This document shows, piece by piece, positions 1,310-36,333 of a stretch of 40,291 nt of DNA (positions within the stretch are counted from its first letter, which is position 1; each line of letters starts with the position of its first letter). The stretch lies in the sequence record NC_047777.1; one strand, given 5' to 3'. Source of the DNA: Escherichia phage ZG49. The position numbers and the translations under genes were made by a program. The notes under the pieces are model-generated. The model searched no databases, was not told the origin of the DNA, and saw nothing but the letters and a program-made list of their open reading frames with translations.

Positions 1310-1834
1310 ATGAAACTGATAGGCAAAGGCGCGTTCACTAAGTGCTACCTGAAGGATTGCGGAAAGCGTGTACTTCTGGTCTCTTCAGACCCAATCAAGG
1401 AGTGTATGGCGTGGGGATGGTTCCCTGAGTCTTCACTGTTCCCTGAAGTCAAGATGATTGAGGTGGGCACGTATGAGATGGACTACATGCCACCAACACG
1501 AGGTCTCAAGGCGCATTTAGATGACGACCAGTGGCAACTCTATCAGGTGCTGCGAGATTGCTTCTCACGGTCTCCGGTATTCTCTCGACCTGCTGACCTG
1601 TATCACAAGTGGTACGAGATATTCCAAGCTGCACACGACAGGTCTGAGACCGAGACTGTGCGGGAAGGTCTGATGGATGTACTGATGGCGCTGGACGCTT
1701 GCGCTAACTTCGGGTCTGACATTCAGTTTGAGATAAGCCCACGAAATGTACGGGCTGTGAATGGTAAGCTGATACTAGTGGATTGTTTCTTCCTTGTGTC
1801 CAAGCTGCCAGAGGTGAGGGCGTTAAGATGGTAA
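1310..1834 (+). CDS. gp0.7-like serine/threonine protein kinase (kinase domain only, 174 aa)
   Basis: Glycine-rich loop IGKGAFTKCY resembles T7 gp0.7 LGNGHFSAAY; further similarity (VLRDCF, ILVDCFF); RBS AAGGA upstream; first gene after early promoters. Confidence 0.7.
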   Translation: MKLIGKGAFTKCYLKDCGKRVLLVSSDPIKECMAWGWFPESSLFPEVKMIEVGTYEMDYMPPTRGLKAHLDDDQWQLYQVLRDCFSRSPVFSRPADLYHKWYEIFQAAHDRSETETVREGLMDVLMALDACANFGSDIQFEISPRNVRAVNGKLILVDCFFLVSKLPEVRALRW

Positions 1835-2289
1835 CTTATGGTCTCTGCCAGCACCACGTCACCAACGCCCGGCTTATGGTCGAGACCGGGCAGTTAGACC
1901 ACGAGATGACGACCAGTGGCAACTCTATCAGGTGCTGCGAGATTGCTTCTCACGGTCTCCGGTATTCTCTCGACCTGCTGACCTGTATCACAAGTGGTAC
2001 GAGATATTCCAAGCTGCACACGACAGGTCTGAGACCGAGACTGTGCGGGAAGGTCTGATGGATGTACTGATGGCGCTGGACGCTTGCGCTAACTTCGGGT
2101 CTGACATTCAGTTTGAGATAAGCCCACGAAATGTACGGGCTGTGAATGGTAAGCTGATACTAGTGGATTGTTTCTTCCTTGTGTCCAAGCTGCCAGAGGT
2201 GAGGGCGTTAAGATGGTAACTTATGGTCTCTGCCAGCACCACGTCACCAACGCCCGGCTTATGGTCGAGACCGGGCAGTTAGACCACGA
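1520..2289. repeat. Tandem duplication A: two identical 385-bp copies (1520-1904, 1905-2289)
   Basis: Direct reading; ORFs 1310-1834 and 1932-2219 share an identical C-terminal 95 aa; 1783-2058 and 2168-2362 share their N-terminus. Confidence 0.9.
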
Positions 2290-2362
2290 TTGGGCTATGC
2301 GTCTCTTGAAAGTGGTCTACAGGAGACGCAAGCGCATACACGATAGTTTACACACTGAGTGA
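2213..2362 (+). CDS. Small hypothetical protein (49 aa) overlapping kinase 3' end; start uncertain (track ORF begins at a TTG at 2168)
   Basis: ATG at 2213 preceded by GAGGTGAG; intact only in copy 2 of duplication A; copy at 1828 is chimeric. Confidence 0.3.
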   Translation: MVTYGLCQHHVTNARLMVETGQLDHDWAMRLLKVVYRRRKRIHDSLHTE

Positions 2363-2428
2363 TAGACGAGAGGTCATCGACTGATAGGTGGCCTCAAAGA
2401 TTATCACTTAAATTGATAGGAGTTAACT

Positions 2429-2596
2429 ATGAAATTTACAGGAATAGCACTTTACGTAACGATTATTATGGCGTGGCTGACTGCGGTATTCACTGATGGG
2501 AACGCATTACGACTAGGCTGGATGGCAGTGGATATTATCTTCTCTCCGGTAGGGGTCGTGCGGGGCATCTTGATGTGGTTTGGATTGGCGGGATAA
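2429..2596 (+). CDS. Small hydrophobic early protein (55 aa, predicted membrane peptide)
   Basis: ATG at 2429 with AGGAG RBS; hydrophobic sequence MKFTGIALYVTIIMAWLTAVF...; below the 60-aa cutoff of the ORF track. Confidence 0.4.
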   Translation: MKFTGIALYVTIIMAWLTAVFTDGNALRLGWMAVDIIFSPVGVVRGILMWFGLAG

Positions 2597-2599
2597 ACT

Positions 2600-2743
2600 A
2601 TGAGTGTGGGATATTTGGTATGCCTGTCTCCGGTCATCTTTCTGATAGCTTGGGGGATATACGATTGTATTAAACGGAAATCACGATTCATGTGCAACCT
2701 CGCGAACGTCTGGGATATAGCAACTATTGGGAGCAAACTGTAA
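2600..2743 (+). CDS. Small hydrophobic early protein (47 aa)
   Basis: ATG at 2600 directly after previous stop; stop overlaps next start (TAATG). Confidence 0.3.
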   Translation: MSVGYLVCLSPVIFLIAWGIYDCIKRKSRFMCNLANVWDIATIGSKL

Positions 2744-3069
2744 TGAATAAGTCATACGGGATTAATCTGGTACACTCTATGGATGCAGAAATGAACATGT
2801 TGAGCCTACTGGCTACAGGCTACCGTCACGGGACCTCAAGTCACACCATTCGTCAACAGCAGGAGCGCGACCGTGTACTTCAGGCACGACTCCGGGCAGA
2901 GGGCCATAAGTCCGAACTGATGTGTCTGGCGTATGGCGGACGACCGATCACTGACGATGGTAAACTTCTGGTATCAGGCTGGAAGGCGATAGACCAACGG
3001 TCAACCATCAAGCACACGACCAAAGGTGACTTCAGTCATCTTCACGCTAACCCACTGATATGCAAGTAA
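2743..3069 (+). CDS. Hypothetical early protein (109 aa)
   Basis: ATG at 2743 overlapping upstream stop; in frame with track ORF 2692-3069; no recognisable motif. Confidence 0.5.
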   Translation: MNKSYGINLVHSMDAEMNMLSLLATGYRHGTSSHTIRQQQERDRVLQARLRAEGHKSELMCLAYGGRPITDDGKLLVSGWKAIDQRSTIKHTTKGDFSHLHANPLICK

Positions 3070-3076
3070 TTATGAC

Positions 3077-3094
3077 TTAACTATCACTATAGGA
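3077..3094 (+). promoter_or_regulatory. Phage RNAP promoter TTAACTATCACTATAGGA, upstream of the RNAP gene
   Basis: Matches the 18-bp consensus found at 10 other intergenic sites; predicted +1 at the first G of TATAGG. Confidence 0.65.
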
Positions 3095-3166
3095 CTCAAG
3101 GTCTAAGACTCCAAGTGAAAGACCAAAGAGACTCTAAGTGAAAGACTAATAACAAGGACTTTAAGT

Positions 3167-5848
3167 ATGAGCGTCATCTCTATTGACAAACACGACTTCT
3201 CTGATGTGTCGAACGCCATTGAGCCGTTTAACCTGCTGGCTGACCACTACGGGCAAGACCTTGCAGTCAAACAGCTTCAGCTTGAGCATGAGGCATATAC
3301 AGAAGGCGAGCGACGTTTCATCAAGAACCTTGAGCGACAGACTGAGCGCGGGGAACTGGCAGACAATCAGGTCGCCAAGCCTTTGATGCAGACTCTGGTC
3401 CCTAAGATTGCGCAAGCCGTCAGGGAGTGGCACGAAGGCCTAGACGGGAAGCTGTCAACCTCGCGTCCTAGCGTAGCGTTCACCATGTTGAGCACTGAAG
3501 AGAAGGCCGTAAAGGACCGCTCTATGCGCATCTCCTGTGAGTCCGCTGCGGTTATCATACTGAAGGTCATACTCTCCAAGCTGGTCAAGCCTGAAGGGAT
3601 ACCGATTACACCGATGTCCTCCGCGATAGGTCGCACACTTGAGGACGAAATCCGCTTCGGTCGCATCCGTGACAAAGAGAAGGAGCACTTCAAGAAGACG
3701 ATAGCTGAGAACCTGAACAAGCGAGTTGGGGCATCCTACAAGAAAGCCTACATGCAAGCGGTCGAGGCGTCCATGCTGGAGCAAGGCCAACTGGAAGATG
3801 CATGGGGGACTTGGAGTCCTACAGAGGCTGTCCACGTTGGCATCAAGATGCTCGAGATTGTCATCCAGTCAACACAACTGGTCGAGCTTAAGCGGTACGG
3901 TGCTGGTAATGCAGCGGCTGACGTAGAGATGGTCCACCTGTCAGACTTCTGGGTCAAGAAGATGGCACAACGAGGATTCAGCCTTGCGGGTATCGCCCCA
4001 GTCTACCAGCCTTGCGTCGTTCCACCTAAGCCGTGGACTGGTGTCGTAGGTGGTGGGTACTGGGCCAAAGGTCGCAGACCGTTACCATTGATTCGCTTAG
4101 GGTCTAAGTCTGCGGTAGCACGTTATGAAGACGTATACATGCCTGAAGTCTATGACGCTGTGAACATCATTCAGAATACACCTTGGAAAGTTAACAAGAA
4201 GGTTCTGGACGTGGTGAACATGGTCGAGAAGTTGAACAACACGCCTATTGATGACATCCCTCAGATGGAACCGCTGAAGCCTGAGGACTATGCTGGTGAG
4301 ACCGAGGAGGAACTCAAGGCATGGAAGAAGGCTGCTGCTGGTATCTATCGCCGCGAGAAGGCCAGACAGTCACGCAGATTATCACTGAGCTTTATCGTTA
4401 ACCAAGCAAACAAGTTCTCTCAGTTCAAGACCATCTGGTTCCCGTACAACATGGATTGGCGTGGTCGTGTCTACGCTGTCCCGATGTTCAACCCTCAGGG
4501 TAACGACATGCAGAAGGGTCTCCTGACGCTGGCAGTCGGCAAGCCTATTGGTGCTGACGGTTTCAAATGGCTGAAGGTCCACGGTGCAAACTGTGCGGGT
4601 GTCGATAAAGTCACCTTCGATGAGCGCATCAAGTGGGTGGAAGACAACCACGAAAACATCATGGCTGCTGCTAAGGCACCGATGGATAGTATTGAGTGGT
4701 GGGGCAAGTTAGACTCTCCGTTCTGTTTCCTCGCGTTCTGCTTCGAGTATGCTGGCGTAATGCACCACGGCCTGTCTTACTCCTGCTCGCTGCCGATAGC
4801 GTTCGATGGGTCCTGCTCTGGTATTCAGCACTTCAGTGCGATGCTTCGTGACCACATCGGTGGACATTCAGTAAACCTGACGCCATCCGGTAAGGTACAA
4901 GACATCTACCGCATTGTGTCTGACCGCATTGAGGAGGAGCTTAAAGTCCTGCTGATTAACGGTACTGACAACGAGATGGTCACTCACGAGGATAAGAAAA
5001 CTGGTGAGATTACCGAACGTATCAAGCTGGGGACACGAGAGCTGGCCCGTCAGTGGCTGACATACGGTATGTCACGCAAGGTCACTAAGCGTTCAGTCAT
5101 GACTCTGGCATACGGGTCAAAAGAGTACGGCTTCGCAGACCAAGTTTACGAGGACATCGTGATGCCAGCGATTGACTCAGGGTCTGGCGCTATGTTCACT
5201 GAACCAAGCCAAGCGTCTCGCTTCATGGCAAAGATGATTTGGGAAGCTGTGAGTGTGACAGTAGTTGCTGCGGTTGACGCGATGAAGTGGCTTCAAGGTG
5301 CTGCCAAGCTGCTGGCTGCTGAGGTGAAGGACAAGAAGACTGGAGAAATCCTGAAGCCTTGCCTTCCGGTACACTGGGTCACACCTGATGGGTTCCCGGT
5401 CTGGCAGGAGTACCGCAAGAAGGATACCACTCGTCTGAACCTGATGTTCTTAGGGTCATTCAATCTTCAGCCTACCGTCAACAGAGGTACGAAGAAAGAG
5501 CTGGACAAGCACAAGCAGGAGTCAGGCATTAGCCCTAACTTCGTCCACTCACAAGATGGTAGCCACCTGCGGAAGACTGTAGTCCACACTCACCGCAAGT
5601 ATGGCGTGATGTCATTCGCAGTGATTCACGATAGCTTCGGGACCATCCCTGCTGACGCTGAGTATCTGTTCCGTGGTGTCCGTGAGACGATGGTCGAGAC
5701 ATACCGCGATAACGATGTGCTGCTTGACTTCTACGAGCAGTTTGAATACCAGCTTCATGAAAGCCAGCGCGACAAGTTGCCTGAGCTTCCGAAGAAAGGT
5801 AAACTGAATATCGAAGACATCTTGTCTTCAGACTTTGCATTCGCTTAA
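3167..5848 (+). CDS. Single-subunit DNA-directed RNA polymerase (gp1-like, 893 aa)
   Basis: Near-colinear similarity to T7 RNAP; C-terminus ...HSQDGSHLRKTVV...HDSFGT...SDFAFA matches the T7 C-terminus. Confidence 0.97.
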   Translation: MSVISIDKHDFSDVSNAIEPFNLLADHYGQDLAVKQLQLEHEAYTEGERRFIKNLERQTERGELADNQVAKPLMQTLVPKIAQAVREWHEGLDGKLSTSRPSVAFTMLSTEEKAVKDRSMRISCESAAVIILKVILSKLVKPEGIPITPMSSAIGRTLEDEIRFGRIRDKEKEHFKKTIAENLNKRVGASYKKAYMQAVEASMLEQGQLEDAWGTWSPTEAVHVGIKMLEIVIQSTQLVELKRYGAGNAAADVEMVHLSDFWVKKMAQRGFSLAGIAPVYQPCVVPPKPWTGVVGGGYWAKGRRPLPLIRLGSKSAVARYEDVYMPEVYDAVNIIQNTPWKVNKKVLDVVNMVEKLNNTPIDDIPQMEPLKPEDYAGETEEELKAWKKAAAGIYRREKARQSRRLSLSFIVNQANKFSQFKTIWFPYNMDWRGRVYAVPMFNPQGNDMQKGLLTLAVGKPIGADGFKWLKVHGANCAGVDKVTFDERIKWVEDNHENIMAAAKAPMDSIEWWGKLDSPFCFLAFCFEYAGVMHHGLSYSCSLPIAFDGSCSGIQHFSAMLRDHIGGHSVNLTPSGKVQDIYRIVSDRIEEELKVLLINGTDNEMVTHEDKKTGEITERIKLGTRELARQWLTYGMSRKVTKRSVMTLAYGSKEYGFADQVYEDIVMPAIDSGSGAMFTEPSQASRFMAKMIWEAVSVTVVAAVDAMKWLQGAAKLLAAEVKDKKTGEILKPCLPVHWVTPDGFPVWQEYRKKDTTRLNLMFLGSFNLQPTVNRGTKKELDKHKQESGISPNFVHSQDGSHLRKTVVHTHRKYGVMSFAVIHDSFGTIPADAEYLFRGVRETMVETYRDNDVLLDFYEQFEYQLHESQRDKLPELPKKGKLNIEDILSSDFAFA

Positions 5849-5864
5849 CAGGGGAGAGAGAGTT

Positions 5865-6080
5865 ATGAAATTTGCACACAAGCAGGCTGGAGTTAAGGGC
5901 GGGACTCAAATCGTGACCGTAACAGAACACAACGGCAATGGTCTGGTGAAGACCACGGTCATTCCTACCGAGATGTCAAAGCAGCTTAACGTCCCATTCA
6001 AGACCCTCGTCTATCTTGTGGAATCCAGCCACGAGAAATACCTGAAAGACGCAGTATCCAAGCTGGTGAAGACCAAATGA
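5865..6080 (+). CDS. Hypothetical protein (71 aa) downstream of RNAP
   Basis: ATG at 5865 with GGAGAG RBS; the track ORF begins at a TTG at 5835. Confidence 0.45.
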   Translation: MKFAHKQAGVKGGTQIVTVTEHNGNGLVKTTVIPTEMSKQLNVPFKTLVYLVESSHEKYLKDAVSKLVKTK

Positions 6081-6156
6081 CATACCTACAGTTACTGGCC
6101 TTGTGGCTGGGAGCACTCGCAGTATTCACTTTAATCCAACGCAGAAGAGGTTAACC

Positions 6157-6174
6157 TAAACTATCACTATAGGA
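6157..6174 (+). promoter_or_regulatory. Phage RNAP promoter TAAACTATCACTATAGGA (phi1.1-like position)
   Basis: Exact consensus; intergenic. Confidence 0.7.
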
Positions 6175-6182
6175 TTAGACTC

Positions 6183-6209
6183 AAGGTCATGACTCAAAGT
6201 CGTGGCCTT
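6183..6209 (+). promoter_or_regulatory. RNA hairpin (12-bp stem with G-U pairs, 3-nt loop); candidate RNase III processing site (R1.1-like)
   Basis: AAGGUCAUGACU / AGUCGUGGCCUU pair fully; motif AGACTCAAGGTCAT...GTGGCCTT..ATGATTA recurs at 13549 and 37381. Confidence 0.5.
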
Positions 6210-6246
6210 CATGATTAACCTAACTCATTCAATCAGGAGCTACACC

Positions 6247-6426
6247 ATGTATCAGAACACTATCAACTTCGAGCGCATCCGTGAACGTCAGCAGACTGAA
6301 GACTACATTCCGAAGGGCCGCAAGCTGAACAAGACCAAGCGTGGCGGTGGTGTCAAGGGTGCTTTCCGTAACGCTGAAGGCAAAGACTCTCTGGTCAACC
6401 GAGAGAAGTATTTCATAGGAGCGTAA
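6247..6426 (+). CDS. gp1.1-like small basic protein
   Basis: KGRKLNKTKR motif as in T7 gp1.1 (from memory); AGGAG RBS 7 nt upstream of ATG 6247. Confidence 0.5.
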   Translation: MYQNTINFERIRERQQTEDYIPKGRKLNKTKRGGGVKGAFRNAEGKDSLVNREKYFIGA

Positions 6427-6429
6427 GCC

Positions 6430-6681
6430 ATGAGTGAACGTTGGTTATTCGACGCATCCACGAGCCAGTGGTCAGCGGTAGGCCGGACTCACCGCGCGAT
6501 GAGTGAGGCAGGACTTGATGTCCTAATGGATTACTCGCCGTGCCCCGGAAAAACTCTGGTCAGAGTAATTGAAGCAGATGGTGGGAGGCTTCTGGTCTCC
6601 AGAGAATTTACCGAAGATGAAATCTTTAGCTGTGAGCAATGGTGCTTACAACAATTGAACGATTATAGGAGCTGGAAATAA
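6430..6681 (+). CDS. gp1.2-like protein (dGTPase inhibitor family)
   Basis: 83 aa versus T7 gp1.2 85 aa; similar C-terminal end (DYRSWK versus DQLKDWK); conserved position. Confidence 0.5.
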   Translation: MSERWLFDASTSQWSAVGRTHRAMSEAGLDVLMDYSPCPGKTLVRVIEADGGRLLVSREFTEDEIFSCEQWCLQQLNDYRSWK

Positions 6682-7736: not shown

Positions 7737-7745
7737 CTAAATGTC

Positions 7746-7783
7746 AACCCAGTGGTCTTAGGACTGCTGGGTTTCTTTGCTTG
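7746..7783 (+). terminator. Candidate intrinsic terminator (TE-like) after the ligase gene
   Basis: 7-bp stem AACCCAG/CTGGGTT followed by TTTCTTTGCTT; T7 places its early terminator after gene 1.3. Confidence 0.45.
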
Positions 7784-7820
7784 TGCTAGCAAGCTATCGT
7801 CTGGGCCACAAGCCTGACCC

Positions 7821-7838
7821 TAAGCTATCACTATAGGA
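7821..7838 (+). promoter_or_regulatory. Phage RNAP promoter TAAGCTATCACTATAGGA
   Basis: One mismatch to consensus; intergenic. Confidence 0.65.
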
Positions 7839-7867
7839 CAACCATAACTCGACCTAAGGAGGCCGAC

Positions 7868-8122
7868 ATGTTTAAGAACTTAATGTTCAATCGTTATACC
7901 AGTACATTCCACCTGTCTCACAACCCATTAGCTTGCATTAAGCGCAACGAGAAGCTGGGCTACTTCGGGAAGGCCGTTAAGCTGTCACCTACAGTCTTCG
8001 CTCTGATTACTCCGGGCAAAGCTGAAGAGGCTCGCCAGAAGCGTGCGACCCACGTACCTGTGGTCTACACTAAGTGGCCTCGAGTTCGTCTGTTCGTTGA
8101 GTTCGTGAAGGAGGTGTTCTGA
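7868..8122 (+). CDS. gp1.6-like hypothetical protein (84 aa)
   Basis: RBS AAGGAGG; position between ligase and gp1.7. Confidence 0.5.
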   Translation: MFKNLMFNRYTSTFHLSHNPLACIKRNEKLGYFGKAVKLSPTVFALITPGKAEEARQKRATHVPVVYTKWPRVRLFVEFVKEVF

Positions 8123-8854
8123 TGGGATGTATAGCTTGCTTAGAGAAACCAGAGGTAACTCCTACAGATGACCAACCTTCCACTGAGTCAATCGACGCTG
8201 TCCGCAAGCCGTCCCACTATCAGGTATTTGACGGAGTGGAGTCCATTGAGATTATCGCTCGGTCCATGACTGTCAGCGAGTTCCGTGGGTTCTGCATGGG
8301 TAACGTCCTGAAGTATCGACTCCGAGCTGGTAAGAAGTCCGAGCTGGCTACTATGGAGAAGGACCTGAACAAAGCGGACTTCTATCAGGAGCTGTTCGAC
8401 CTGAGCTGGGCTACTTCGGGAAGGCCGTTAAGCTGTCACCTACAGTCTTCGCTCTGATTACTCCGGGCAAAGCTGAAGAGGCTCGCCAGAAGCGTGCGAC
8501 CCACGTACCTGTGGTCTACACTAAGTGGCCTCGAGTTCGTCTGTTCGTTGAGTTCGTGAAGGAGGTGTTCTGATGGGATGTATAGCTTGCTTAGAGAAAC
8601 CAGAGGTAACTCCTACAGATGACCAACCTTCCACTGAGTCAATCGACGCTGTCCGCAAGCCGTCCCACTATCAGGTATTTGACGGAGTGGAGTCCATTGA
8701 GATTATCGCTCGGTCCATGACTGTCAGCGAGTTCCGTGGGTTCTGCATGGGTAACGTCCTGAAGTATCGACTCCGAGCTGGTAAGAAGTCCGAGCTGGCT
8801 ACTATGGAGAAGGACCTGAACAAAGCGGACTTCTATCAGGAGCTGTTCGACCTG
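7953..8854. repeat. Tandem duplication B: two identical 451-bp copies (7953-8403, 8404-8854)
   Basis: Direct reading; ORFs 8122-8457 and 8573-8881 share their first 94 aa. Confidence 0.9.
8122..8457 (+). pseudogene. Chimeric gp1.7 copy created by duplication B (native C-terminus replaced by out-of-frame gp1.6 sequence)
   Basis: Identical to 8573-8881 until ...QELFDL, then diverges at the duplication junction. Confidence 0.6.
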
Positions 8855-8881
8855 CACAAAGGTAAGTGTTATGACGTATGA
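8573..8881 (+). CDS. gp1.7-like protein (nucleotide kinase family), 102 aa
   Basis: GCIACLEK...KPEVTPTDDQPS...IARSMTV...KYRLRAGKKSELA...KADFY resembles the T7 gp1.7 C-terminal half (from memory). Confidence 0.65.
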   Translation: MGCIACLEKPEVTPTDDQPSTESIDAVRKPSHYQVFDGVESIEIIARSMTVSEFRGFCMGNVLKYRLRAGKKSELATMEKDLNKADFYQELFDLHKGKCYDV

Positions 8882-8910
8882 AGAACTTAAAGCTGTAATG
8901 GTGAACCGAT

Positions 8911-9009
8911 ATGCTTAAACCGAGTGAGTGGTGCCGGGAGATGTACGAGAAGACTCTCAACCCGGACTACATTACGTTATACAACCAATGGAAGGAGCGT
9001 GGTCTATGA
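8911..9009 (+). CDS. Small ORF (32 aa), gp1.8-like position
   Basis: ATG at 8911, ends overlapping the gp2 start; no motif. Confidence 0.25.
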
Positions 9010-9164
9010 CTGACGTAGAGAAGAAATACATCGTTGAGCTTGAGGGTCGCGTTCAGTCCTTCGAGGTTCCGGTGTACGCAAAGTCTCTTGAAGAGGCTAC
9101 ACTGAAGTCCCAAGAGTATGAGGACGCTGGGTTTGTGGTCGGACGGATTCGTCCTGAGACCTAA
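9006..9164 (+). CDS. gp2-like inhibitor of host RNA polymerase (52 aa)
   Basis: [14 protein letters not shown]...[10 protein letters not shown] versus T7 gp2 SFEVPIYAETLDEA...AGFEVTRVRP; RBS AAGGAG before ATG 9006. Confidence 0.7.
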
Positions 9165-9179
9165 ACTATCACTGTAGGA
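9162..9179 (+). promoter_or_regulatory. Phage RNAP promoter variant TAAACTATCACTGTAGGA (phi2.5-like position)
   Basis: One mismatch (-3 G) to consensus. Confidence 0.5.
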
Positions 9180-9221
9180 CAGACGTCCAGTTCGTAACTT
9201 TAAAATAGGAGATTTACACCG

Positions 9222-9920
9222 ATGGCTAAAGAGCAACTGAAGACTTTCACCACTCCGGTAGCTGGTATCGTTGAGCCTTACGCATGGCTGAACAAAGCAG
9301 ACACCAAGTTTAACGAGCGTGGTGAGCATAAGGTTAACCTGACATTCGACCTGAGCAACCCGAAGGTCCGTAAGATGATTGATGTCTTACAGAAGATTCA
9401 CGACGATGCGTATGCGAAAGCACTTGCAGACCACGAGAAGAACCCACCTCAGGTTCAGCGTGGCAAGAAGCCTATTGAACCACGAGAAGGCGACATGCCG
9501 TGGATTGAGAATGGTGACGGTACTGTTACCATGAAGTTTAAATGCTTCGCGTCTTACCTGAAGGATGGTAAGTCTGAGCCTATCATATTACGGTTCTACG
9601 ACACCGATGCTAAGTTAATCCGTGACGTCCCGAATATTGGCGCTGGCTCAAAGCTGAAGGTCAAGTTTAAAGTCCTGCCGTTTAAGTGGAACGCTGCGAC
9701 TGGTGCAAGCGTTAAGCTACAGCTTGAGTCCTGCCTTCTGGTAGAACTGAAGGAGTGGAAAGGCGATGGTGCTGGTGGCGATGGTGGTTGGGGTGATGAT
9801 GAAGACCTCGGTACTGGCTACAAAGCGTCAACCGATGGTGACTTCGGGTCTGATGACTTCGGTGACGATGGTTCCGAAGGTGGTGACGACTCCAACTCTG
9901 GTGGCGATTACGACTTCTAA
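9222..9920 (+). CDS. Single-stranded DNA-binding protein (gp2.5-like, 232 aa)
   Basis: Same length as T7 gp2.5; acidic Gly/Asp-rich C-terminal tail ending in aromatic F (GGDYDF). Confidence 0.9.
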   Translation: MAKEQLKTFTTPVAGIVEPYAWLNKADTKFNERGEHKVNLTFDLSNPKVRKMIDVLQKIHDDAYAKALADHEKNPPQVQRGKKPIEPREGDMPWIENGDGTVTMKFKCFASYLKDGKSEPIILRFYDTDAKLIRDVPNIGAGSKLKVKFKVLPFKWNAATGASVKLQLESCLLVELKEWKGDGAGGDGGWGDDEDLGTGYKASTDGDFGSDDFGDDGSEGGDDSNSGGDYDF

Positions 9921-9976
9921 TGAAACTTAAAGAGAAACTAGAGGCTTACTCTGAGGTTTCTCCTGGTGGATGTAGT

Positions 9977-10426
9977 ATGAGTAGAGGACATCAAGTAGGT
10001 GCTTATCGCTCTGGACTCGAAGCAAAGAACCAAGAGTGGCTTGAGAAGAATGGCGTAAAAGCTGAATACGAAGCATATAAAATAGGCTACGTAGTACCAT
10101 CCAGCGACCACTTCTACACACCAGATTTTATCCTTCCTAACGGTATCATCGTGGAGACCAAAGGTCTCTTCGATAGTGATGACCGTAAGAAGCACCTTCT
10201 GGTACGAGAACAGCACCCTGAGTTAGACATTCGGTTCGTGTTCTCAAGTTCACGCTCCAAGTTATACAAGGGGTCTCCGACCACGTATGGCGCATGGTGC
10301 GAAAAGAACGGCTTTAAGTTTGCCGACAAGTTTATCCCGGTTGAGTGGCTGAGAGAGGTGACTGTACGTCTACCTTCAGGTATTCTCATCCCCAAGAAGA
10401 AAGGAGTTAAGGATATTCGCACCTAA
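9977..10426 (+). CDS. Endonuclease I (gp3-like Holliday junction resolvase, 149 aa from ATG 9977)
   Basis: Strong similarity to T7 gp3 (GAYRSGLE, YTPDF, PNGI.VETKGL..SDDRKKHLL.REQHPELDIR.VFSSSR.KLYKGSPT); track ORF starts earlier at 9920. Confidence 0.85.
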   Translation: MSRGHQVGAYRSGLEAKNQEWLEKNGVKAEYEAYKIGYVVPSSDHFYTPDFILPNGIIVETKGLFDSDDRKKHLLVREQHPELDIRFVFSSSRSKLYKGSPTTYGAWCEKNGFKFADKFIPVEWLREVTVRLPSGILIPKKKGVKDIRT

Positions 10427-11009
10427 AGCGAGACCCTTAAGTTTATGGCTGAAAAATACTCAGTAAGTGAGACAACCATAAGTCGAATCAGGAACAACAA
10501 GAGGTGGAAATAATAATGGGAAGTAAAGTACAATTCATGCCACGCAAGTCAACTGACGCTATCTTCGTTCACTGTTCGGCTACCAAGCCAGAGATGGACA
10601 TCGGGGTAGAGACCATCCGTATGGTGTTCTCAAGTTCACGCTCCAAGTTATACAAGGGGTCTCCGACCACGTATGGCGCATGGTGCGAAAAGAACGGCTT
10701 TAAGTTTGCCGACAAGTTTATCCCGGTTGAGTGGCTGAGAGAGGTGACTGTACGTCTACCTTCAGGTATTCTCATCCCCAAGAAGAAAGGAGTTAAGGAT
10801 ATTCGCACCTAAAGCGAGACCCTTAAGTTTATGGCTGAAAAATACTCAGTAAGTGAGACAACCATAAGTCGAATCAGGAACAACAAGAGGTGGAAATAAT
10901 AATGGGAAGTAAAGTACAATTCATGCCACGCAAGTCAACTGACGCTATCTTCGTTCACTGTTCGGCTACCAAGCCAGAGATGGACATCGGGGTAGAGACC
11001 ATCCGTATG
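10238..11009. repeat. Tandem duplication C: two identical 386-bp copies (10238-10623, 10624-11009)
   Basis: Direct reading; ORF 10504-10812 has the lysozyme N-terminus fused to the endonuclease I C-terminus. Confidence 0.9.
10504..10812 (+). pseudogene. Chimeric ORF: lysozyme N-terminal 40 aa fused to endonuclease I C-terminal 62 aa
   Basis: N-terminus identical to 10890-11360 and C-terminus identical to 9920-10426; switch at the duplication junction. Confidence 0.6.
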
Positions 11010-11360
11010 TGGCACAAGCAACAAGGCTGGCTGGACGTAGGCTACCACTTTATCATCAAGCGAGATGGCACTGTGGAAGAGGGTCGCCCGGTCAATGTCG
11101 TAGGGTCACACGTTAAGGACTGGAACTCAAAGTCCGTAGGCGTCTGCCTTGTAGGTGGAATTGACGCTAAGGGCAAGTTTGAAGCTAACTTCACTCCGGC
11201 CCAGATGAACTCCCTGCGCAACAAGCTGGCTGACCTGAAGGCCCTGTATCCTCAGGCAGAAATAAAAGCACACCATGATGTAGCACCTAAGGCGTGTCCA
11301 AGTTTCGACTTGCAACGCTGGCTGTCTACCGATGAACTGGTCACTTCCGACCGTGGTTAA
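10902..11360 (+). CDS. Lysozyme / N-acetylmuramoyl-L-alanine amidase (gp3.5-like)
   Basis: Strong similarity to T7 lysozyme (STDAIFVHCSATKP, WLDVGYHFIIKRDGTVE, HH..APKACPSFD, ELVTSDRG); ATG 10902 after GAGGTGGA. Confidence 0.9.
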   Translation: MGSKVQFMPRKSTDAIFVHCSATKPEMDIGVETIRMWHKQQGWLDVGYHFIIKRDGTVEEGRPVNVVGSHVKDWNSKSVGVCLVGGIDAKGKFEANFTPAQMNSLRNKLADLKALYPQAEIKAHHDVAPKACPSFDLQRWLSTDELVTSDRG

Positions 11361-26213: not shown

Positions 26214-26540
26214 ATGTATATTCGCAAGGCTACGGAACCGGATGTCCACTACTTTCTGTGGCATCTTTCAGCAGATGATGTTAATGAGTGCAAAGCAAAC
26301 TACGGGTCAACCGTTGGTCTCTCTGAAAGACTGCTTAAGCACCTATCTCCGTCATCTGTGGTTTTAACGAACGGTGTAGGCGAAGTGTTTGCCTATGGTG
26401 GAAACCAAGGGGATAACGTATGGTTCTTGACTTCAGGTCTGGTCTATAAGCTGAGACCTAAAGAGAAGCGAGAGTTCATAAAGCGTATCTCTGAGTACAG
26501 GGACTTAATGTTAGACCAATACGGGACCATCTGGAACTGA
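26214..26540 (+). CDS. gp13-like internal virion/assembly protein (108 aa from ATG 26214)
   Basis: ATG 26214 with AGGAG RBS downstream of the promoter; the track ORF start at 26136 would precede the promoter. Confidence 0.55.
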   Translation: MYIRKATEPDVHYFLWHLSADDVNECKANYGSTVGLSERLLKHLSPSSVVLTNGVGEVFAYGGNQGDNVWFLTSGLVYKLRPKEKREFIKRISEYRDLMLDQYGTIWN

Positions 26541-26735: not shown

Positions 26736-26762
26736 AAAATTTGCGAGCCAATTAGCATTGGG

Positions 26763-29620: not shown

Positions 29621-29624
29621 CATA

Positions 29625-32600: not shown

Positions 32601-33512
32601 ACTGGTAGTAAGCGTAAGTTCGATGACCGCTGGCTTAAGACCGCTGGTATCTCTGACGAGCAGTGGAAGGGCATTAAGTCCCTAATCCGTGAGTCAGTGA
32701 CTCGTGGTCCAGACGGGAAGTACACCATCAAGGATAAGAAGGCGTTCAGTCAGGACCCAAGGGCTATGGACCTATGGCGTATGGGTGACACCATCGCAGA
32801 TGAAACGTTACTCCGTCCTCATAAGCTGTCCAACATGGACGCCAAGGCTTATGGTCCTCTCGCTAAGACTGTCCTTCAGTTTAAGAACTTCGTCATCAAG
32901 TCCATCAATGGTCGAACCATGCGAACATTCTATAACGCCACGAAGAACAACCGAGCGATGGACGCTGCACTGTCTACTGTGATGTCTATGGGTCTGGCTG
33001 GTATCTACTACATGGCTCAGGCGCACGTCAAGGCTTACGCTATGCAGGACGGTCGAGACCGAGATTATCTCAAGCAAGCTCTGGACCCAACGATGATTGG
33101 CTATGCGGCCCTGTCCCGTAGTTCACATCTGGGTGGACCACTTGGGGTAGCTAACATTCTAGGTGGCATCGCTGGGTATGAGGACACTAAGATGCTCCGT
33201 TCGTCTATCCTCCCGCGTTCACCTACAGAGAAACCCGAACGTGCCATCCCATATGGTGCGGCTACAAGTGACCCTGTGATGAATGTCGTTGGTAACTTCT
33301 TGGAGCAGGTCCCGGCTTTCGGCTATGCTGCTAACGTTGGCGCTTCGGCATACAACTTGGCTGGCTACCTCAAGGCTGATACTCGTGTCAACGAGCGGGA
33401 CTACATGACCGGGATGTATAATACGTTCCGTGAACTGGTTCCGAACGACCCCATTACCCAGAAGTTGCTGCTTGGAACGTTTGAGGAGCAAGGTATCCAC
33501 ATCAAGGACTAA
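29625..33512 (+). CDS. Internal virion protein D (gp16-like) with a divergent N-terminal domain
   Basis: From about residue 190 onward colinear with T7 gp16 (RSTFFGF, TPTRWN, VVTGGSP.NL, RLEARETARN, LVRSPTGMQSGASGK, NSFLEARNLFDSD, RRVNGDIAIM, LLNGTTNYLLDA, RAMDLWR, YALSRSS); first about 145 aa unlike the T7 transglycosylase domain; ATG 29625. Confidence 0.9.
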   Translation: MATRGIRNNNPGNIRVGKDQWEGMTGDDGAFVTFDSPESGVRALGKNLLSYGRQGYDSIEKIINRWAPPNENDTKAYIDSVVAATGIPATQSLDLSDHDTLSSLAQAISFHETGSRYDPEVYQKGVARALNGISPKTPPVSANVFDALTEGLKAKPKVALGENLPTAAGLNIEGQAPEAPNESFGEMFYKSTGDTMQEREDRSTWFGFGAATEAEVKNSMVGVAIRAGKTEDSLDVIGDVFNPTRWNNHKWTREELDQIRNAGVLPQYYGVITGGSPQNLTELINLALENQKLDQEKAKAGTGAQLAAGVIGAGVDPLTYVPIAGQVGKGGKLVNKMFTVAAQSGALAGVSEMARTSVAGGDAHVAEAILGGALFGGGMTAIADGLGRALGRNTNEFAGPATRLEARETARNVDGQDLSRLPIQEGEQTFSHQGVKFADVPNEPGSVRLEDGSILIGENPLNPKTRQVFDEVIEPERAAAGVNLGGLTEIGLKLLRSENPEIRGVAADLVRSPTGMQSGASGKIGTTASDVFERLRAVDHRFYNDIDDAVTEALKDPYFQTAFWRDSGAFRQDIYQRVSMAIEDGSGNLKAELTPGELKVYDLLKNQFDAKREMMENPAMFGRPDAQSIFPGSRFKGTYVPHVYSNQMKELYIKELGSPEALQEAIKKSWLTSYASRPEVKKRVDEALLEADPTLTPEGLAAAVDKYANDKAYGISHTEQFERSSVMEENINGLVGLENNSFLEARNLFDSDMSIVLPNGQTFSVNNLREWDMDKIVPAYNRRVNGDIAIMAGTGKTTKEMKDLVETMMNKAGDDGKLKGEVSTLRDTLKILTGRSRRDGADDAAFATVMRTMTDLSFFAKNAYMGVQNLTEIGGMLARGNVRAMLHGVPIFRDLAFRNKKVGASEIKDLHNVLFGKELDDSIRPSKQDVIDRLRSYSDLGRGTATALGTAKYYTGELAVRSPFTKVLNGTTNYLLDAGRQGFLSDIVEHSLTGSKRKFDDRWLKTAGISDEQWKGIKSLIRESVTRGPDGKYTIKDKKAFSQDPRAMDLWRMGDTIADETLLRPHKLSNMDAKAYGPLAKTVLQFKNFVIKSINGRTMRTFYNATKNNRAMDAALSTVMSMGLAGIYYMAQAHVKAYAMQDGRDRDYLKQALDPTMIGYAALSRSSHLGGPLGVANILGGIAGYEDTKMLRSSILPRSPTEKPERAIPYGAATSDPVMNVVGNFLEQVPAFGYAANVGASAYNLAGYLKADTRVNERDYMTGMYNTFRELVPNDPITQKLLLGTFEEQGIHIKD

Positions 33513-33527
33513 ACTATCACTATAGGA
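33510..33527 (+). promoter_or_regulatory. Phage RNAP promoter TAAACTATCACTATAGGA (phi17-like)
   Basis: Exact consensus upstream of the tailspike gene. Confidence 0.75.
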
Positions 33528-33576
33528 AACGGGAGGCGCTACCATAGGTCTCCGTTTAAATAACAAAGGAGGCATA

Positions 33577-35637
33577 ATGTCCACGATTACACAATTCCCT
33601 TCAGGAAACACTCAGTACAGGATTGAGTTCGACTACCTAGCCAGAACGTTTGTTGTTGTTACGCTGGTGAATAGCTCTAACCCTACCCTGAACCGTGTAC
33701 TGGAAGTTGGTCGAGATTACCGATTCCTTAACCCAACGATGATTGAGATGTTGGTTGACCAATCAGGTTTCGACATCGTTCGTATTCACCGTCAGACTGG
33801 AACTGACTTAGTGGTAGACTTCAGGAATGGCTCAGTGTTGACAGCTAGTGACCTGACCAATTCAGAGCTTCAGGCTATCCATATTGCAGAAGAAGGTCGA
33901 GACCAAACGGTTGACTTAGCGAAGGAATATGCCGATGCTGCTGGTAGCTCTGCTGGCAACGCTAAGGATAGCGAGGACGAAGCACGCCGAATCGCTGCGA
34001 GTATCAGGGAAGCTGGTCTAATTGGCTATATTACCCGTCGCTCCTTCGAGAAAGGCTACAACGTTACAACATGGAGCGAGGTCCTGCTATGGGAAGAGGA
34101 TGGTGATTATTACCGCTGGGATGGTACGCTTCCAAAGAACGTTCCTGCTGGTTCAACTCCTGAAACTTCCGGTGGGATTGGATTAGGTGCGTGGGTTAGT
34201 GTTGGTGATGCTGCTTTAAGAAGTCAGATTTCAAACCCGGAAGGGGCAATACTCTACCCGGAATTGCAGATGGCAAGATGGCGTGATGAGGGTGATGTTC
34301 GAGGCTGGGGTGCTAAAGGGGATGGTGTAACAGATAGTACGGAGAATATAGCTGCTTCACTAAATTCTCAAAAAGCTGTCGTAGCATCAGAAGGTGTATT
34401 CTCTAGTTCTGGTATTAATAGTAATTACTGTAACTTAGACGGTAGAGGCAGTGGTGTACTAAGTCACCGTTCAAGTACAGGTAACTACTTAGTATTTAAC
34501 AATCTACGCTCAGGTCGCTTAAGTAATATTACGGTAGAAAGTAATAAGGCGACCGATACCACTCAAGGGCAGCAGGTATCTCTTGCTGGTGGCAGTGATG
34601 TTACTATAAGTGATGTTAATTTCTCAAACGTTAAGGGCGCTGGTTTCAGTTTAATCACATACCCTAATGATGCACCCTCTGATGGGCTTATGATTAAAGG
34701 CATTCGAGGTAGCTACTCCGGCTATGCTACTAATAAGGCGGCTGGATGCATACTTGCTGATTCCTCAGTTAACTCCCTCATAAATAACGTCATTGCTAAG
34801 AACTACCCTCAGTTCGGGGCTGTAGAACTGAAAGGTACAGCCAGTTATAACATAGTCAGCAATGTTATAGGGGCAGACTGCCAGCATGTAACTTACAACG
34901 GTACAGAAGGGTCAATAGCTCCCTCTAACAACCTTATCAATGGGGTAGTGGCTAATAATCCTAAATATGCAGCGGTTGTTGCAGGCAAAGGTAGTACCAA
35001 CTTAATCTCCGATGTGCTTGTAGATTTCTCAACCTCTGATGCTAGGCAGGCTCATGGTGTTACAGTAGAAGGTTCTGATAACGTCATAAATAATGTGCTT
35101 ATGTCAGGGTGTGATGGTACTAACTCTTTAGGGCAAGCTCAGACTGCTACAATTGCGCGCTTTATAGATACGGCTAATAACAACTATGCGTCTGTATTTC
35201 CTAGCTACAGTGCTACAGGTGTTATTACTTTCGAATCAGGTTCTACCCGTAACTTCGTAGAGGTAAAGCATCCGGGAAGGAGAAACGACCTTCTCAGTGC
35301 TACTGGTACTATTGAAGGTAAAGTTACTATTGACGGCACTAGTAATAGCAACGTAGTGCACGCTCCTGCATTAGGACAGTACATAGGCAGTATGTCCGGT
35401 AGGTTCGAATGGCGGATTAAGTCCATGTCACTTCCGTCAGGCGTTCTTACCTCGGCTGATAAGTACAGAATGCTTGGGGATGGTGCTGTGTCATTAGCTG
35501 TAGGTGGGGGTACTTCTTCTCAAGTTCGCCTATTTACTTCTGATGGTACTTATCGGACAGTATCACTCACCAACGGTAACGTGCGTCTTCCTACCAGTAG
35601 CACAGGTTATTTGCAGTTAGGTTCTAGCTCCCTCTAA
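33577..35637 (+). CDS. Tailspike (gp17-like), N-terminal 686-aa fragment truncated by tandem duplication D
   Basis: N-terminal 150 aa resemble the T7 gp17 adaptor domain (EFDYLARTFVVVTL, DYRF, VDFRNGSVL.ASDL, IAEEGRD); then a beta-helix-like region (WGAKGDGVTD); reading frame breaks at the duplication junction at 35625. Confidence 0.8.
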   Translation: MSTITQFPSGNTQYRIEFDYLARTFVVVTLVNSSNPTLNRVLEVGRDYRFLNPTMIEMLVDQSGFDIVRIHRQTGTDLVVDFRNGSVLTASDLTNSELQAIHIAEEGRDQTVDLAKEYADAAGSSAGNAKDSEDEARRIAASIREAGLIGYITRRSFEKGYNVTTWSEVLLWEEDGDYYRWDGTLPKNVPAGSTPETSGGIGLGAWVSVGDAALRSQISNPEGAILYPELQMARWRDEGDVRGWGAKGDGVTDSTENIAASLNSQKAVVASEGVFSSSGINSNYCNLDGRGSGVLSHRSSTGNYLVFNNLRSGRLSNITVESNKATDTTQGQQVSLAGGSDVTISDVNFSNVKGAGFSLITYPNDAPSDGLMIKGIRGSYSGYATNKAAGCILADSSVNSLINNVIAKNYPQFGAVELKGTASYNIVSNVIGADCQHVTYNGTEGSIAPSNNLINGVVANNPKYAAVVAGKGSTNLISDVLVDFSTSDARQAHGVTVEGSDNVINNVLMSGCDGTNSLGQAQTATIARFIDTANNNYASVFPSYSATGVITFESGSTRNFVEVKHPGRRNDLLSATGTIEGKVTIDGTSNSNVVHAPALGQYIGSMSGRFEWRIKSMSLPSGVLTSADKYRMLGDGAVSLAVGGGTSSQVRLFTSDGTYRTVSLTNGNVRLPTSSTGYLQLGSSSL

Positions 35638-36333
35638 CAACCTTATCAATGGGGTAGTGGCTAATAATCCTAAATATGCAGCGGTTGTTGCAGGCAAAGG
35701 TAGTACCAACTTAATCTCCGATGTGCTTGTAGATTTCTCAACCTCTGATGCTAGGCAGGCTCATGGTGTTACAGTAGAAGGTTCTGATAACGTCATAAAT
35801 AATGTGCTTATGTCAGGGTGTGATGGTACTAACTCTTTAGGGCAAGCTCAGACTGCTACAATTGCGCGCTTTATAGATACGGCTAATAACAACTATGCGT
35901 CTGTATTTCCTAGCTACAGTGCTACAGGTGTTATTACTTTCGAATCAGGTTCTACCCGTAACTTCGTAGAGGTAAAGCATCCGGGAAGGAGAAACGACCT
36001 TCTCAGTGCTACTGGTACTATTGAAGGTAAAGTTACTATTGACGGCACTAGTAATAGCAACGTAGTGCACGCTCCTGCATTAGGACAGTACATAGGCAGT
36101 ATGTCCGGTAGGTTCGAATGGCGGATTAAGTCCATGTCACTTCCGTCAGGCGTTCTTACCTCGGCTGATAAGTACAGAATGCTTGGGGATGGTGCTGTGT
36201 CATTAGCTGTAGGTGGGGGTACTTCTTCTCAAGTTCGCCTATTTACTTCTGATGGTACTTATCGGACAGTATCACTCACCAACGGTAACGTGCGTCTTCC
36301 TACCAGTAGCACAGGTTATTTGCAGTTAGGTTC
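34916..36333. repeat. Tandem duplication D: two identical 709-bp copies (34916-35624, 35625-36333) inside the tailspike gene
   Basis: Direct reading; ORFs 33577-35637 and 35657-36817 share about 230 identical residues. Confidence 0.9.

Follow-up and report, generated by a model that had tools for sequence, protein, structure and literature searches.

Genome and gene layout

The window analysed here, the whole 40,291 nt of sequence record NC_047777.1 (Escherichia phage ZG49), is a permuted contig of a Kayfunavirus genome, that is, of a K1F-like member of the Studiervirinae in the T7 family. Its T7-type gene order is colinear with that of the genus, it encodes a single-subunit RNA polymerase, and it shows 92-97% nucleotide identity over most of its length to IME177, R1, YZ1, pO2, and K1F. 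The 11 phage-promoter matches found, against 0.03 expected, were also counted toward membership.

Direct repeats of at least 100 bp in the window number only five (385, 386, 401, 451, and 709 bp), all perfect, and repeats this long cannot have arisen by chance. Four are two-copy tandem duplications that had been predicted earlier; all are present, with copies that are 100% identical and abut exactly, with nothing between them. The fifth, which is of similar size and was absent from the earlier list, pairs positions 1-401 with 39891-40291.

1519..1903, + strand: duplication 1, copy A, 385 bp; covers the final 316 nt of the gene 0.3-like ORF and the first 76 nt of the small gene after it
1904-2288, plus ambiguous base 2289, + strand: duplication 1, copy B; junction 1903/1904; single-copy in YZ1
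7953..8403, + strand: duplication 2, copy A, 451 bp; runs from the 3' end of gene 1.6 through codon 94 of the gene 1.7-like ORF
8404..8854, + strand: duplication 2, copy B; junction 8403/8404, microhomology 0 nt; one copy in about 12 relatives
10238..10623, + strand: duplication 3, copy A, 386 bp; covers 63 codons at the end of gene 3, an intergenic stretch, and codons 1-36 of gene 3.5
10624..11009, + strand: duplication 3, copy B; junction 10623/10624, microhomology 0 nt; one copy in about 18 relatives
34916..35624, + strand: duplication 4, copy A, 709 bp; entirely within tailspike gene 17, native residues ~447-682
35625..36333, + strand: duplication 4, copy B; junction 35624/35625, microhomology 0 nt; one copy in IME177, R1, L028, L031, and L032

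At the junction of duplication 1 a single 'A' is ambiguous, and 1520-2289 and 1519-2288 are consequently equivalent registrations. The original prediction had stated that no period is a multiple of 3, that junction microhomology is at most 1-2 nt, and that about 1.9 kb is added; the periods leave remainders of 1, 1, 2, and 1 (duplications 1-4), the microhomology measures 1, 0, 0, and 0 nt, and the extra DNA amounts to 1931 bp. Its argument that perfect identity implies either very recent events or an artefact is sound, and there are no mismatches between copies.

A comparison with the closest relatives, which had been proposed as a check, covered K1F, PE3-1, IME177, R1, and YZ1 from GenBank, 17 IMG/VR loci, and further contigs; the contigs compared across the tailspike region are 97-98.6% identical. 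In all of these relatives, about 30, each site is single-copy, and only the window has the duplications. Furthermore, no internal direct repeat of at least 100 bp is found in any of the ~30, the only such repeat being the true 178-bp terminal repeat of K1F.

Genes at duplications 1-3

1310..1834, + strand: gene 0.3-like ORF, 174 aa; intact via copy A, full-length 97% match to YZ1 gp02
1828..2058, + strand: duplication 1 junction ORF; opens with 25 codons native to the small gene and runs on into gene 0.3 sequence read out of frame (by coordinate arithmetic)
2213..2362, + strand: small gene, 49 aa; intact via copy B, full-length matches in R1, PE3-1, and IME177
7868..8122, + strand: gene 1.6, 84 aa; intact
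8122..8457, + strand: duplication 2 junction ORF, 111 aa; begins with 94 gene 1.7 codons and ends in a tail read out of frame
8573..8881, + strand: gene 1.7-like ORF, 102 aa, DUF3310; intact via copy B
9920..10426, + strand: gene 3, endonuclease I (Phage_endo_I); intact
10516..10812, + strand: duplication 3 junction ORF; amidase codons 1-36 joined in frame to endonuclease I codons 107-168
10902..11360, + strand: gene 3.5, amidase (Amidase_2), 152 aa; intact via copy B

It had been claimed that each junction creates a chimeric or truncated ORF. Such an ORF does lie at all four, but less is damaged than the claim implies: duplications 1-3 span gene boundaries, so that one intact copy of each affected gene is retained, and only duplication 4 disrupts a gene. 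Similarly, the description "out-of-frame" holds for all the periods but not for the junction product of duplication 3, which is an in-frame fusion by coordinate arithmetic (10516-10812, within an ORF listed as 10504-10812).

Duplication 4 and the tailspike

33577..35637, + strand: tailspike ORF, truncated to 686 aa; native residues 1-682 followed by a few that stem from the junction/frameshift (C-terminus ...GSSSL, then stop)
35657..36817, + strand: second tailspike fragment; native residues 458-843, with the Peptidase_S74 intramolecular chaperone domain
26214..26540, + strand: truncated gene 13, 108 aa; private 320-bp deletion

Duplication 4 splits gene 17, placing the spike body and the C-terminal Peptidase_S74 chaperone domain on different ORFs. 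The truncated ORF keeps Phage_T7_tail and Tail_spike_N and lacks the chaperone; the second fragment has a GTG start without a clear ribosome-binding site. Once the duplication is collapsed, the tailspike is colinear across 843 aa with those of IME177 and R1 at 97%. The truncated product has no record in the protein collection, and the 40-mer spanning the junction has no match in IMG/VR.

The spikes of K1F and phi29 aggregate when expressed without the Peptidase_S74 domain (PMC3357383), and the K1F tailspike is essential, with stop codons inside it generally not tolerated (PMC12632334). Duplication 4 should result in loss of infectivity. A second virion gene is also altered: a private 320-bp deletion with no junction homology, at 26539/26540, shortens gene 13, removing 44-48 conserved C-terminal residues. 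A viable phage requires intact essential virion genes; here gene 17 is split and gene 13 is shortened. Further private deletions of 93 bp (at 16175) and ~158 bp (at 23079) were observed.

Contig ends and genome length

1..401, + strand: contig-end overlap, left copy, 401 bp; holds gene 19.5 (95-253); not a physical genome end
492..670, + strand: site of the T7-type direct terminal repeat, ~179 bp; one copy only in the window
39891..40291, + strand: contig-end overlap, right copy, 401 bp

The possibility that the 401-bp end repeat is a T7-type terminal repeat was considered and rejected. Position 1 of K1F, which has a 178-bp terminal repeat, maps to window position 492 and its end to 670; the terminal repeat of Penshu1 is 1-179 by PhageTerm, and the YZ1 and KM02 sequences begin at window 492. 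The 401-bp repeat lies upstream of this true genome end, indicating an uncurated permuted contig that extends beyond 100% of the genome. Such over-extended contigs are named as an artefact in the Phage Annotation Guide, which advises that contigs be checked for duplicated regions (PMC8785237).

Without the 401-bp redundancy, the window holds 39,890 bp of unique-plus-duplicated sequence, or ~40.07 kb with a terminal repeat of ~179 bp, a length within those of the listed relatives (38.4-40.9 kb). Given this length and the harmlessness of duplications 1-3, these would be physically tolerable in a real phage. Removal of the duplications leaves 38,360 bp; the collapsed genome, 37,959 bp unique plus the ~179-bp terminal repeat, comes to ~38.1 kb, below every listed relative. 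This shortfall, together with the three private deletions, could suggest that the duplications are real fillers, selected to restore DNA content from ~38.1 to ~40.1 kb, and size-compensating duplications are indeed classical in lambda deletion mutants. However, T7-type packaging does not follow a headful mechanism but cuts at specific concatemer junctions, and T7 withstands the deletion of several percent of its genome. Moreover, 1.9 kb has been added against a deficit of only ~0.3 kb relative to the smallest relative, and a size filler is not expected inside the essential tailspike gene. Selection for DNA content is thus extremely improbable.

Breakpoints and content of the duplicated units

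The placement of the units resembles that of random breakpoints. Under random breakpoints on this genome, a total junction microhomology of at most 1 nt has P=0.30; under random placement, one of four units inside a gene has P=0.29 and no period of four divisible by 3 has P=0.20. The intragenic fraction and the frame thus fit random placement and give no signal of selection. Of the tandem duplications that arise de novo in bacteria and fungi, 13% have 0 bp of microhomology and 70% at least 3 bp (bioRxiv 10.64898/2026.02.28.708716). Microhomology-mediated tandem duplication was accordingly rejected, the 1, 0, 0, and 0 nt seen here contrasting with a typical flanking repeat of at least 3 bp.

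None of the 11 phage-promoter matches or the terminator-like sites in the window lies within a duplicated unit, sigma-70-like matches inside the units are as frequent as in shuffled sequence, and no unit contains a complete gene. With no promoter, terminator-like site, or whole gene in the units, an adaptive or regulatory duplication of an evolved T7-type phage was also rejected.

Origin of the duplications

Taken together, these features suggest an explanation that lies outside the phage. If adjacent pieces overlapping by X bp were laid end to end unmerged, a perfect two-copy repeat of X bp would result, with arbitrary endpoints and zero junction homology, and a last piece overlapping the first would generate end redundancy in the same way. 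The window would then consist of five overlapping pieces (1-1903, 1904-8403, 8404-10623, 10624-35624, and 35625-40291), with unmerged overlaps of 385, 451, 386, and 709 bp between neighbours and a further 401 bp where the circle closes. The same pattern would be produced by an equivalent assembler or polisher error or by an erroneous in-silico duplication. Judging from the sequence, it is likely that overlapping pieces were joined unmerged, or that an equivalent mis-assembly or in-silico edit took place, and that the duplications are absent from the phage DNA; we infer the joining mechanism itself.

Several observations are those expected of an artefact. The copies are exactly identical and abutting, the breakpoints are indifferent to homology and gene structure, the structure is missing from independently sequenced close relatives, and the record looks uncurated in other respects as well: its ends overlap by 401 bp at a non-physical position, the true terminal repeat occurs once, and gene 13 is truncated. 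The 320-bp deletion is compatible with sequence missing between two pieces, or with a record that is unreliable overall. The original prediction had left both lab evolution and mis-assembly open; mis-assembly is now favoured by the private occurrence, random breakpoints, lack of microhomology, absence of any detected regulatory element from the units, lost tailspike, and 401-bp overlap, whereas lab evolution has weak precedent. Counted against an artefact are the harmlessness of duplications 1-3 and the natural occurrence of homology-free tandem duplications (~13% of events). Common de Bruijn-graph assemblers produce end overlaps of k-mer length, ~55-141 bp. Overlaps of 385-709 bp are not of this length, so that an artefact presupposes a less common pipeline, for example one in which contigs came from overlap-layout or long-read assembly, pieces were ordered on a reference and naively concatenated, or joins were made by hand.

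That the duplications are real and recent is unlikely. A specific form of this idea, which we regard as improbable, is that they arose very recently and spontaneously, by illegitimate recombination without homology or by template switching as T7-type concatemers replicated, and reached high frequency in the sequenced stock; duplications 1-3 would be near-neutral passengers, and duplication 4 would persist in a mixed population or be complemented by co-infecting wild type. In its favour, every gene is intact at duplications 1-3, the total length lies inside the genus range, and the private indels (93, ~158, and 320 bp) may mean that the lineage is structurally labile. Evolving T7 does duplicate in tandem, as in the 154 bp of T7:LME_2000 (PMC3737178), and ~13% of de novo events are homology-free (bioRxiv 10.64898/2026.02.28.708716). 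However, four independent homology-free events in 38 kb are improbable, the likelihood ratio being ~130:1 for random breakpoints with a prior taken from short duplications in cellular organisms, not T7-like phages. None of the ~30 relatives shares any of the duplications, the units have no selectable content that was found, duplication 4 is expected to be lethal with the truncated gene 13 as a second defect, and the 401-bp overlap at non-physical ends is left unexplained. In addition, deletion between direct repeats in T7 climbs exponentially with repeat length, on the account of Pierce et al. 1991 as cited in PMC4362386. By that cited account, a recombination-proficient T7-like phage should rapidly lose long perfect repeats, and four repeats of 385-709 bp should be hard to keep at consensus without selection.

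A broader biological version, slightly more doubtful, is that a wild Kayfunavirus lineage underwent a burst of homology-independent change, comprising the four duplications (385-709 bp), several deletions, and the split tailspike. End-joining-like repair or a defective replication/recombination apparatus could be the cause, and the tailspike would be complemented by co-infection or would function as two overlapping polypeptides with the chaperone acting in trans.

K1F-type phages without a functional tailspike gene, such as the ORACLE acceptor phage, do grow when the protein is provided in trans (PMC12632334), and this raises the question of a deliberate construct, either a helper-dependent engineered phage with gp17 in trans or structural variants introduced in vitro or in silico. 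The breakpoints do look random, and two of the five inter-junction pieces, at 6500 and 25001 nt, deviate from a multiple of 500 by no more than 1 nt (post hoc P ~4e-4), which hints at a computational origin. However, that pattern is post hoc and inconsistent (6500 versus 25001), recombinase sites, barcodes, markers, and foreign inserts are absent at all junctions, and there is no engineering reason for duplicating parts of genes 0.3, 1.6/1.7, and 3/3.5. An in-silico edit would also look like the artefact from sequence alone. A deliberate construct is very unlikely.

If, as seems likely, unmerged joining or an equivalent error is responsible, the biological importance is probably nil, but the importance for quality control is real. 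In a public or working collection the record would bring 1.9 kb of false DNA, three spurious chimeric ORFs, and a false "terminal repeat", and a tailspike appearing as a pseudogene could mislead host-range prediction. A better working hypothesis for the phage sequence is the form of 38,360 bp that results from collapsing the duplications, with its ends re-opened at window position 492. Were the junctions supported by reads, the phage would be unusual among T7-like phages in having fixed multiple homology-free duplications together, and it would make possible a direct test of the Peptidase_S74 chaperone domain acting in trans.

Comparison with known systems

Microhomology-mediated tandem duplication, by slippage or template switching, likewise yields a two-copy, head-to-tail arrangement of a once single-copy segment. 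Its events, however, are mostly short and have flanking microhomology, whereas the units in the window lack it and are much longer. T7:LME_2000, in which a 154-bp duplication with the phi13 promoter appeared after 2000 generations of T7 evolution (PMC3737178), also has a tandem duplication at consensus frequency in a T7-family genome. That was one short, intergenic, promoter-bearing event under strong selection; the window has four, of 385-709 bp, one of which destroys gene 17. The T7-type direct terminal repeat shares with the 401-bp repeat its perfect identity and its position at both ends of a linear T7-family sequence, but the terminal repeat of the genus is ~178-179 bp, at 492-670, and the 401-bp repeat sits upstream and includes gene 19.5.

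Contig over-extension differs in that the textbook case has a single redundancy at the contig ends, whereas the window has four more that are internal and need several unmerged pieces or a local reassembly or polishing error; the overlaps of 385-709 bp also exceed the usual k-mer overlaps. Nevertheless, over-extended or unmerged contigs resemble the window in their perfect redundancy, its arbitrary placement relative to genes and physical ends, and its absence from relatives, and the 401-bp end overlap is the textbook form of such over-extension (Phage Annotation Guide, PMC8785237).

Four perfect duplications and a repeat at the ends

Three approaches (a search for repeats, Tandem Repeats Finder, and base-by-base extension) agree that the window contains four two-copy tandem duplications whose copies are 100% identical, as had been claimed in the original prediction. 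These duplications and the junctions (J1-J4) at which copy A meets copy B are as follows.

Tandem duplications in Escherichia phage ZG49 (NC_047777.1)
Duplication 1: copies 1519-1903 and 1904-2288; period 385; one ambiguous 'A' at the boundary; microhomology 1 nt; J1, GACCGGGCAGTTAGACCACG / AGATGACGACCAGTGGCAAC
Duplication 2: copies 7953-8403 and 8404-8854; period 451; microhomology 0 nt; J2, ATCAGGAGCTGTTCGACCTG / AGCTGGGCTACTTCGGGAAG
Duplication 3: copies 10238-10623 and 10624-11009; period 386; microhomology 0 nt; J3, GGGTAGAGACCATCCGTATG / GTGTTCTCAAGTTCACGCTC
Duplication 4: copies 34916-35624 and 35625-36333; period 709; microhomology 0 nt; J4, GGTTATTTGCAGTTAGGTTC / TAGCTCCCTCTAACAACCTT

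The accompanying claims also hold: none of the periods (385, 451, 386, and 709) is divisible by 3, junction microhomology (1, 0, 0, and 0 nt) stays within the predicted 1-2 nt, and the "about 1.9 kb" of extra DNA amounts to 1931 bp, giving 38,360 bp for the collapsed form, in which each duplication is cut to a single copy. In addition, positions 1-401 are repeated perfectly at 39891-40291, a fifth repeat of similar size that links the ends of the window. A search for inverted repeats and chimera signatures yielded a single weak 36-nt pair.

Genome type and physical ends

The window represents the complete genome of a Kayfunavirus (K1F-like, T7 family). Over most of the window, identity to IME177, vB_EcoP-R1, YZ1, pO2, and K1F is 92-97%, and the genome's own phage-promoter consensus is matched at 11 sites. 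Apart from these relatives, no identical record or parent contig turned up in the collections consulted; exact-protein look-ups for the RNA polymerase, gp16, and the capsid protein were negative, and the E. coli RefSeq and plasmid collections gave no match. In alignment, position 1 of K1F falls at window 492, which is also the start point of the YZ1 and KM02 records, and the K1F right end falls at window 670; the terminal repeat of K1F itself is 178 bp, and that of Penshu1 has been annotated by PhageTerm as 1-179. Thus, the genus-typical terminal repeat of ~179 bp (~492-670) is internal here and present in single copy. Furthermore, gene 19.5 opens the window, as it does the permuted PE3-1 record. 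The window is a permuted contig beginning in the gene 19.5 region rather than a genome written from its physical ends. The 401-bp end repeat reflects a contig that overruns 100% of a circularised assembly, not a physical terminal repeat; such overruns are a common artefact, and checking contigs for duplicated regions is advised (Phage Annotation Guide, PMC8785237).

Directly to the right of the inferred terminal repeat, at 688-793, lies a tandem array with a 15-bp unit, GTCCTACAACCTACA, in 7.1 copies, in a region that shows indels among relatives. The array is similar to the arrays of short repeats bordering the terminal repeat of T7.

Copy number in relatives

The relatives examined are all single-copy at the duplication sites; they include five GenBank genomes, the 17 IMG/VR loci that have unit-end 20-mers in common with the window, and three contigs whose tailspike region is 97-98.6% identical. 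The unit-end 20-mers match contigs from IMG/VR, metagenomes, and GTDB genomes, always once per locus, and no relative with any of the duplications was found by this search. Internal direct repeats of at least 100 bp are present in none of 23 related sequences. The 40-mer spanning the junction of duplication 4 is absent from IMG/VR, as is a native 40-mer.

Genes at duplications 1-3

A duplication damages a gene only when the whole unit lies inside it. Duplications 1-3 straddle gene boundaries and consequently spare their neighbours, the upstream gene being whole by way of copy A and the downstream gene by way of copy B.

Genes and junction reading frames at duplications 1-3
Duplication 1: 0.3-like ORF, 1310-1834, and small gene, 2213-2362, both intact; junction ORF 1828-2058, by-product
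Duplication 2: gene 1.6, 7868-8122, and 1.7-like ORF, 8573-8881, both intact; junction ORF 8122-8457, by-product
Duplication 3: endonuclease I, 9920-10426, and amidase, 10902-11360, both intact; junction ORF 10516-10812, by-product

Four of these six genes align over their full length to homologues in relatives, and the matches of the other two cover the conserved core (residues 19-164 of 168 for endonuclease I and 7-101 of 102 for the 1.7-like ORF). A chimeric or truncated ORF had been predicted at each junction, and this is borne out by the three junction ORFs and, at duplication 4, by a split tailspike gene. The description "out-of-frame" fits all four periods but not every product, since coordinate arithmetic shows amidase joined in frame to endonuclease I in the junction ORF of duplication 3. 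The spacer between endonuclease I and amidase, ~103 nt (10412-10514, copied at 10798-10900), is unlike that of any relative, where it is 216 or about 461 nt (gene 3.2 variants).

As a point against an assembly artefact, duplications 1-3 are harmless and the total length lies within the range of the genus, so that these three could exist physically. That the four duplications are real and recent, perhaps in a mixed population, is judged unlikely, an engineered or edited construct is considered a distinctly improbable source, and the idea that the duplications compensate for genome size is highly implausible.

Duplication 4 and the tailspike

Duplication 4 lies wholly within tailspike gene 17. 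In the collapsed form, this gene encodes 843 aa, 97% identical to and colinear with the IME177 and R1 tailspikes. As written, it is divided into a first ORF of 686 aa (native residues 1-682, followed by a few junction/frameshift residues) and a second fragment (native residues 458-843) that has a GTG start without a clear ribosome-binding site. By Pfam, the T7-tail adaptor and Tail_spike_N domains are in the first fragment, and the Peptidase_S74 intramolecular chaperone is in the second only. The K1F and phi29 spikes aggregate when expressed without the C-terminal chaperone domain (PMC3357383), and stop codons are mostly not tolerated in the K1F tailspike, an essential protein (PMC12632334). 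In its written form, the sequence should therefore be unable to specify an infectious phage. An exact-protein look-up returned no record identical to the truncated tailspike.

From ~residue 150-175 to its end, the tailspike is 95-98% identical to that of three contigs, a 48.9-kb metagenome contig, CYGL01000936, and a Pantoea eucrina scaffold, which over the stretches fetched have nothing else in common with the window. That the match is confined to this receptor-binding part (window about 34100-36800; collapsed coordinates 32871-34936) suggests that the tailspike module has been exchanged horizontally.

A private deletion at gene 13 and other indels

Similarity to all relatives ends exactly at window 26538. 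Alignment to Penshu1 reveals a clean 320-bp deletion relative to Penshu1/ST21/CY1-type relatives, with its junction at 26539/26540; its length is not a multiple of 3, and it lacks microhomology. The deletion strips gene 13 (26214-26540) of its last 44-48 conserved codons, leaving a gp13 of 108 aa that, as far as the break, matches IME177 gp13 at 100% identity. It also takes about the first half to two-thirds of an endonuclease VII gene, leaving a C-terminal remnant at 26586-26735. Among the best 30 of 163 matching phage records, none bridges 26539/26540 in one piece, and in the five that cover it the match is split in two and spans an extra 320 bp; the 22-mer across the junction has no match in IMG/VR. 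Gene 13 is thus, after the tailspike gene, the second conserved virion gene to be damaged, here by a private event without homology. The break at 26538-26766 was also considered as another duplication-type rearrangement, a reading rejected in favour of the endonuclease VII remnant plus this private deletion.

Two further unbridged points, ~8900 and ~9972, are bridged by other relatives and represent ordinary mosaicism. At ~16175, a small gene 5.5-like ORF has a clean 93-bp in-frame deletion relative to IME177, R1, YZ1, Penshu1, and KM02; microhomology at its junction is 2 nt ('CA'), and all the top database matches need extra sequence to bridge it. At ~23069-23083, the window lacks about 158 bp that IME177, R1, and pO2 have (junction microhomology ~3-4 nt); this deletion extends from the small ORF that follows gene 10 into a T-phi-like terminator stem and leaves the T-run alone, so that the late terminator hairpin may be missing from this genome. 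In IME177, the closest relative (MZ398247), DNA ligase (13374-14449) is annotated as two CDSs, 13374-13928 and 14117-14449, a hint that this public record, too, has a frameshift or was misassembled.

Origin of the duplications

Taken together, these results indicate that the duplications are probably not present in phage DNA and, as biology, are most likely not a real feature. Two origins had been offered in the original prediction without a choice between them, mis-assembly and a lab-evolved T7-type genome; the artefact is favoured here and the evolved genome less so. Most likely, overlapping pieces of one genome would have been joined end to end with their overlaps unmerged, and the 320-bp deletion could mark a place where such pieces left a gap. 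Unmerged overlap is the most economical account because there are five perfect repeats of similar size, their ends are random and homology-free, the contig ends are non-physical, and the repeats are absent from relatives. However, the usual short-read assemblers leave k-mer overlaps shorter than 385-709 bp, which counts against this account, and an error of local reassembly, polishing, or in-silico duplication would leave the same signature.

The breakpoints themselves were compared with uniformly random placement, simulated on the de-duplicated genome. The probabilities of at most one of four units being intragenic (P=0.29), of all four periods not being multiples of 3 (P=0.20), and of junction microhomology summing to at most 1 nt (P=0.30) are all unremarkable and consequently give no hint of selection or of a homology-driven mechanism. 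Selection had been considered because three of the four duplications spare genes, but boundary-crossing units always spare both. In bacteria and fungi, deep sequencing has shown microhomology of 0 bp at just 13% of de novo tandem duplications and of at least 3 bp at 70% (bioRxiv 10.64898/2026.02.28.708716). The 0, 0, 0, 1 pattern is about 130x likelier with random breakpoints than with that distribution, a figure that is indicative only because the distribution is drawn from short events in cellular organisms. The natural-looking indels of this genome, at ~8900, 16175, and 23079, have 2-4 nt of junction microhomology.

Junction-to-junction pieces (junctions 1904, 8404, 10624, and 35625) measure 1903, 6500, 2220, 25001, and 4667 nt, and two of the five (6500 and 25001) differ by no more than 1 nt from a multiple of 500 (calculated post hoc, P about 4e-4 if placement is random). 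Such round lengths may point to a computational origin or may be coincidence; as proof they were rejected, being post hoc and, at 6500 versus 25001, mutually inconsistent, and they count only as a lead of low weight.

In practice, the duplications serve as a warning flag on this sequence record, and the 38,360-bp collapsed form, re-opened at 492, is proposed as a better hypothesis for the phage genome.

Comparison with T7

None of the four units contains a phage promoter or terminator-like site, sigma-70-like matches occur in them at the frequency expected from shuffled sequence, and no selectable content was found inside them. According to a passage in PMC4362386 citing Pierce et al. (1991), deletion between direct repeats in T7 rises exponentially with repeat length; if so, four unselected repeats of 385-709 bp should be short-lived. 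The adaptive duplication documented in evolved T7 is a single 154-bp intergenic one carrying promoter phi13, which was found after 2000 generations (PMC3737178). The duplications of ZG49 differ from it in kind, being four units with no phage promoter inside.
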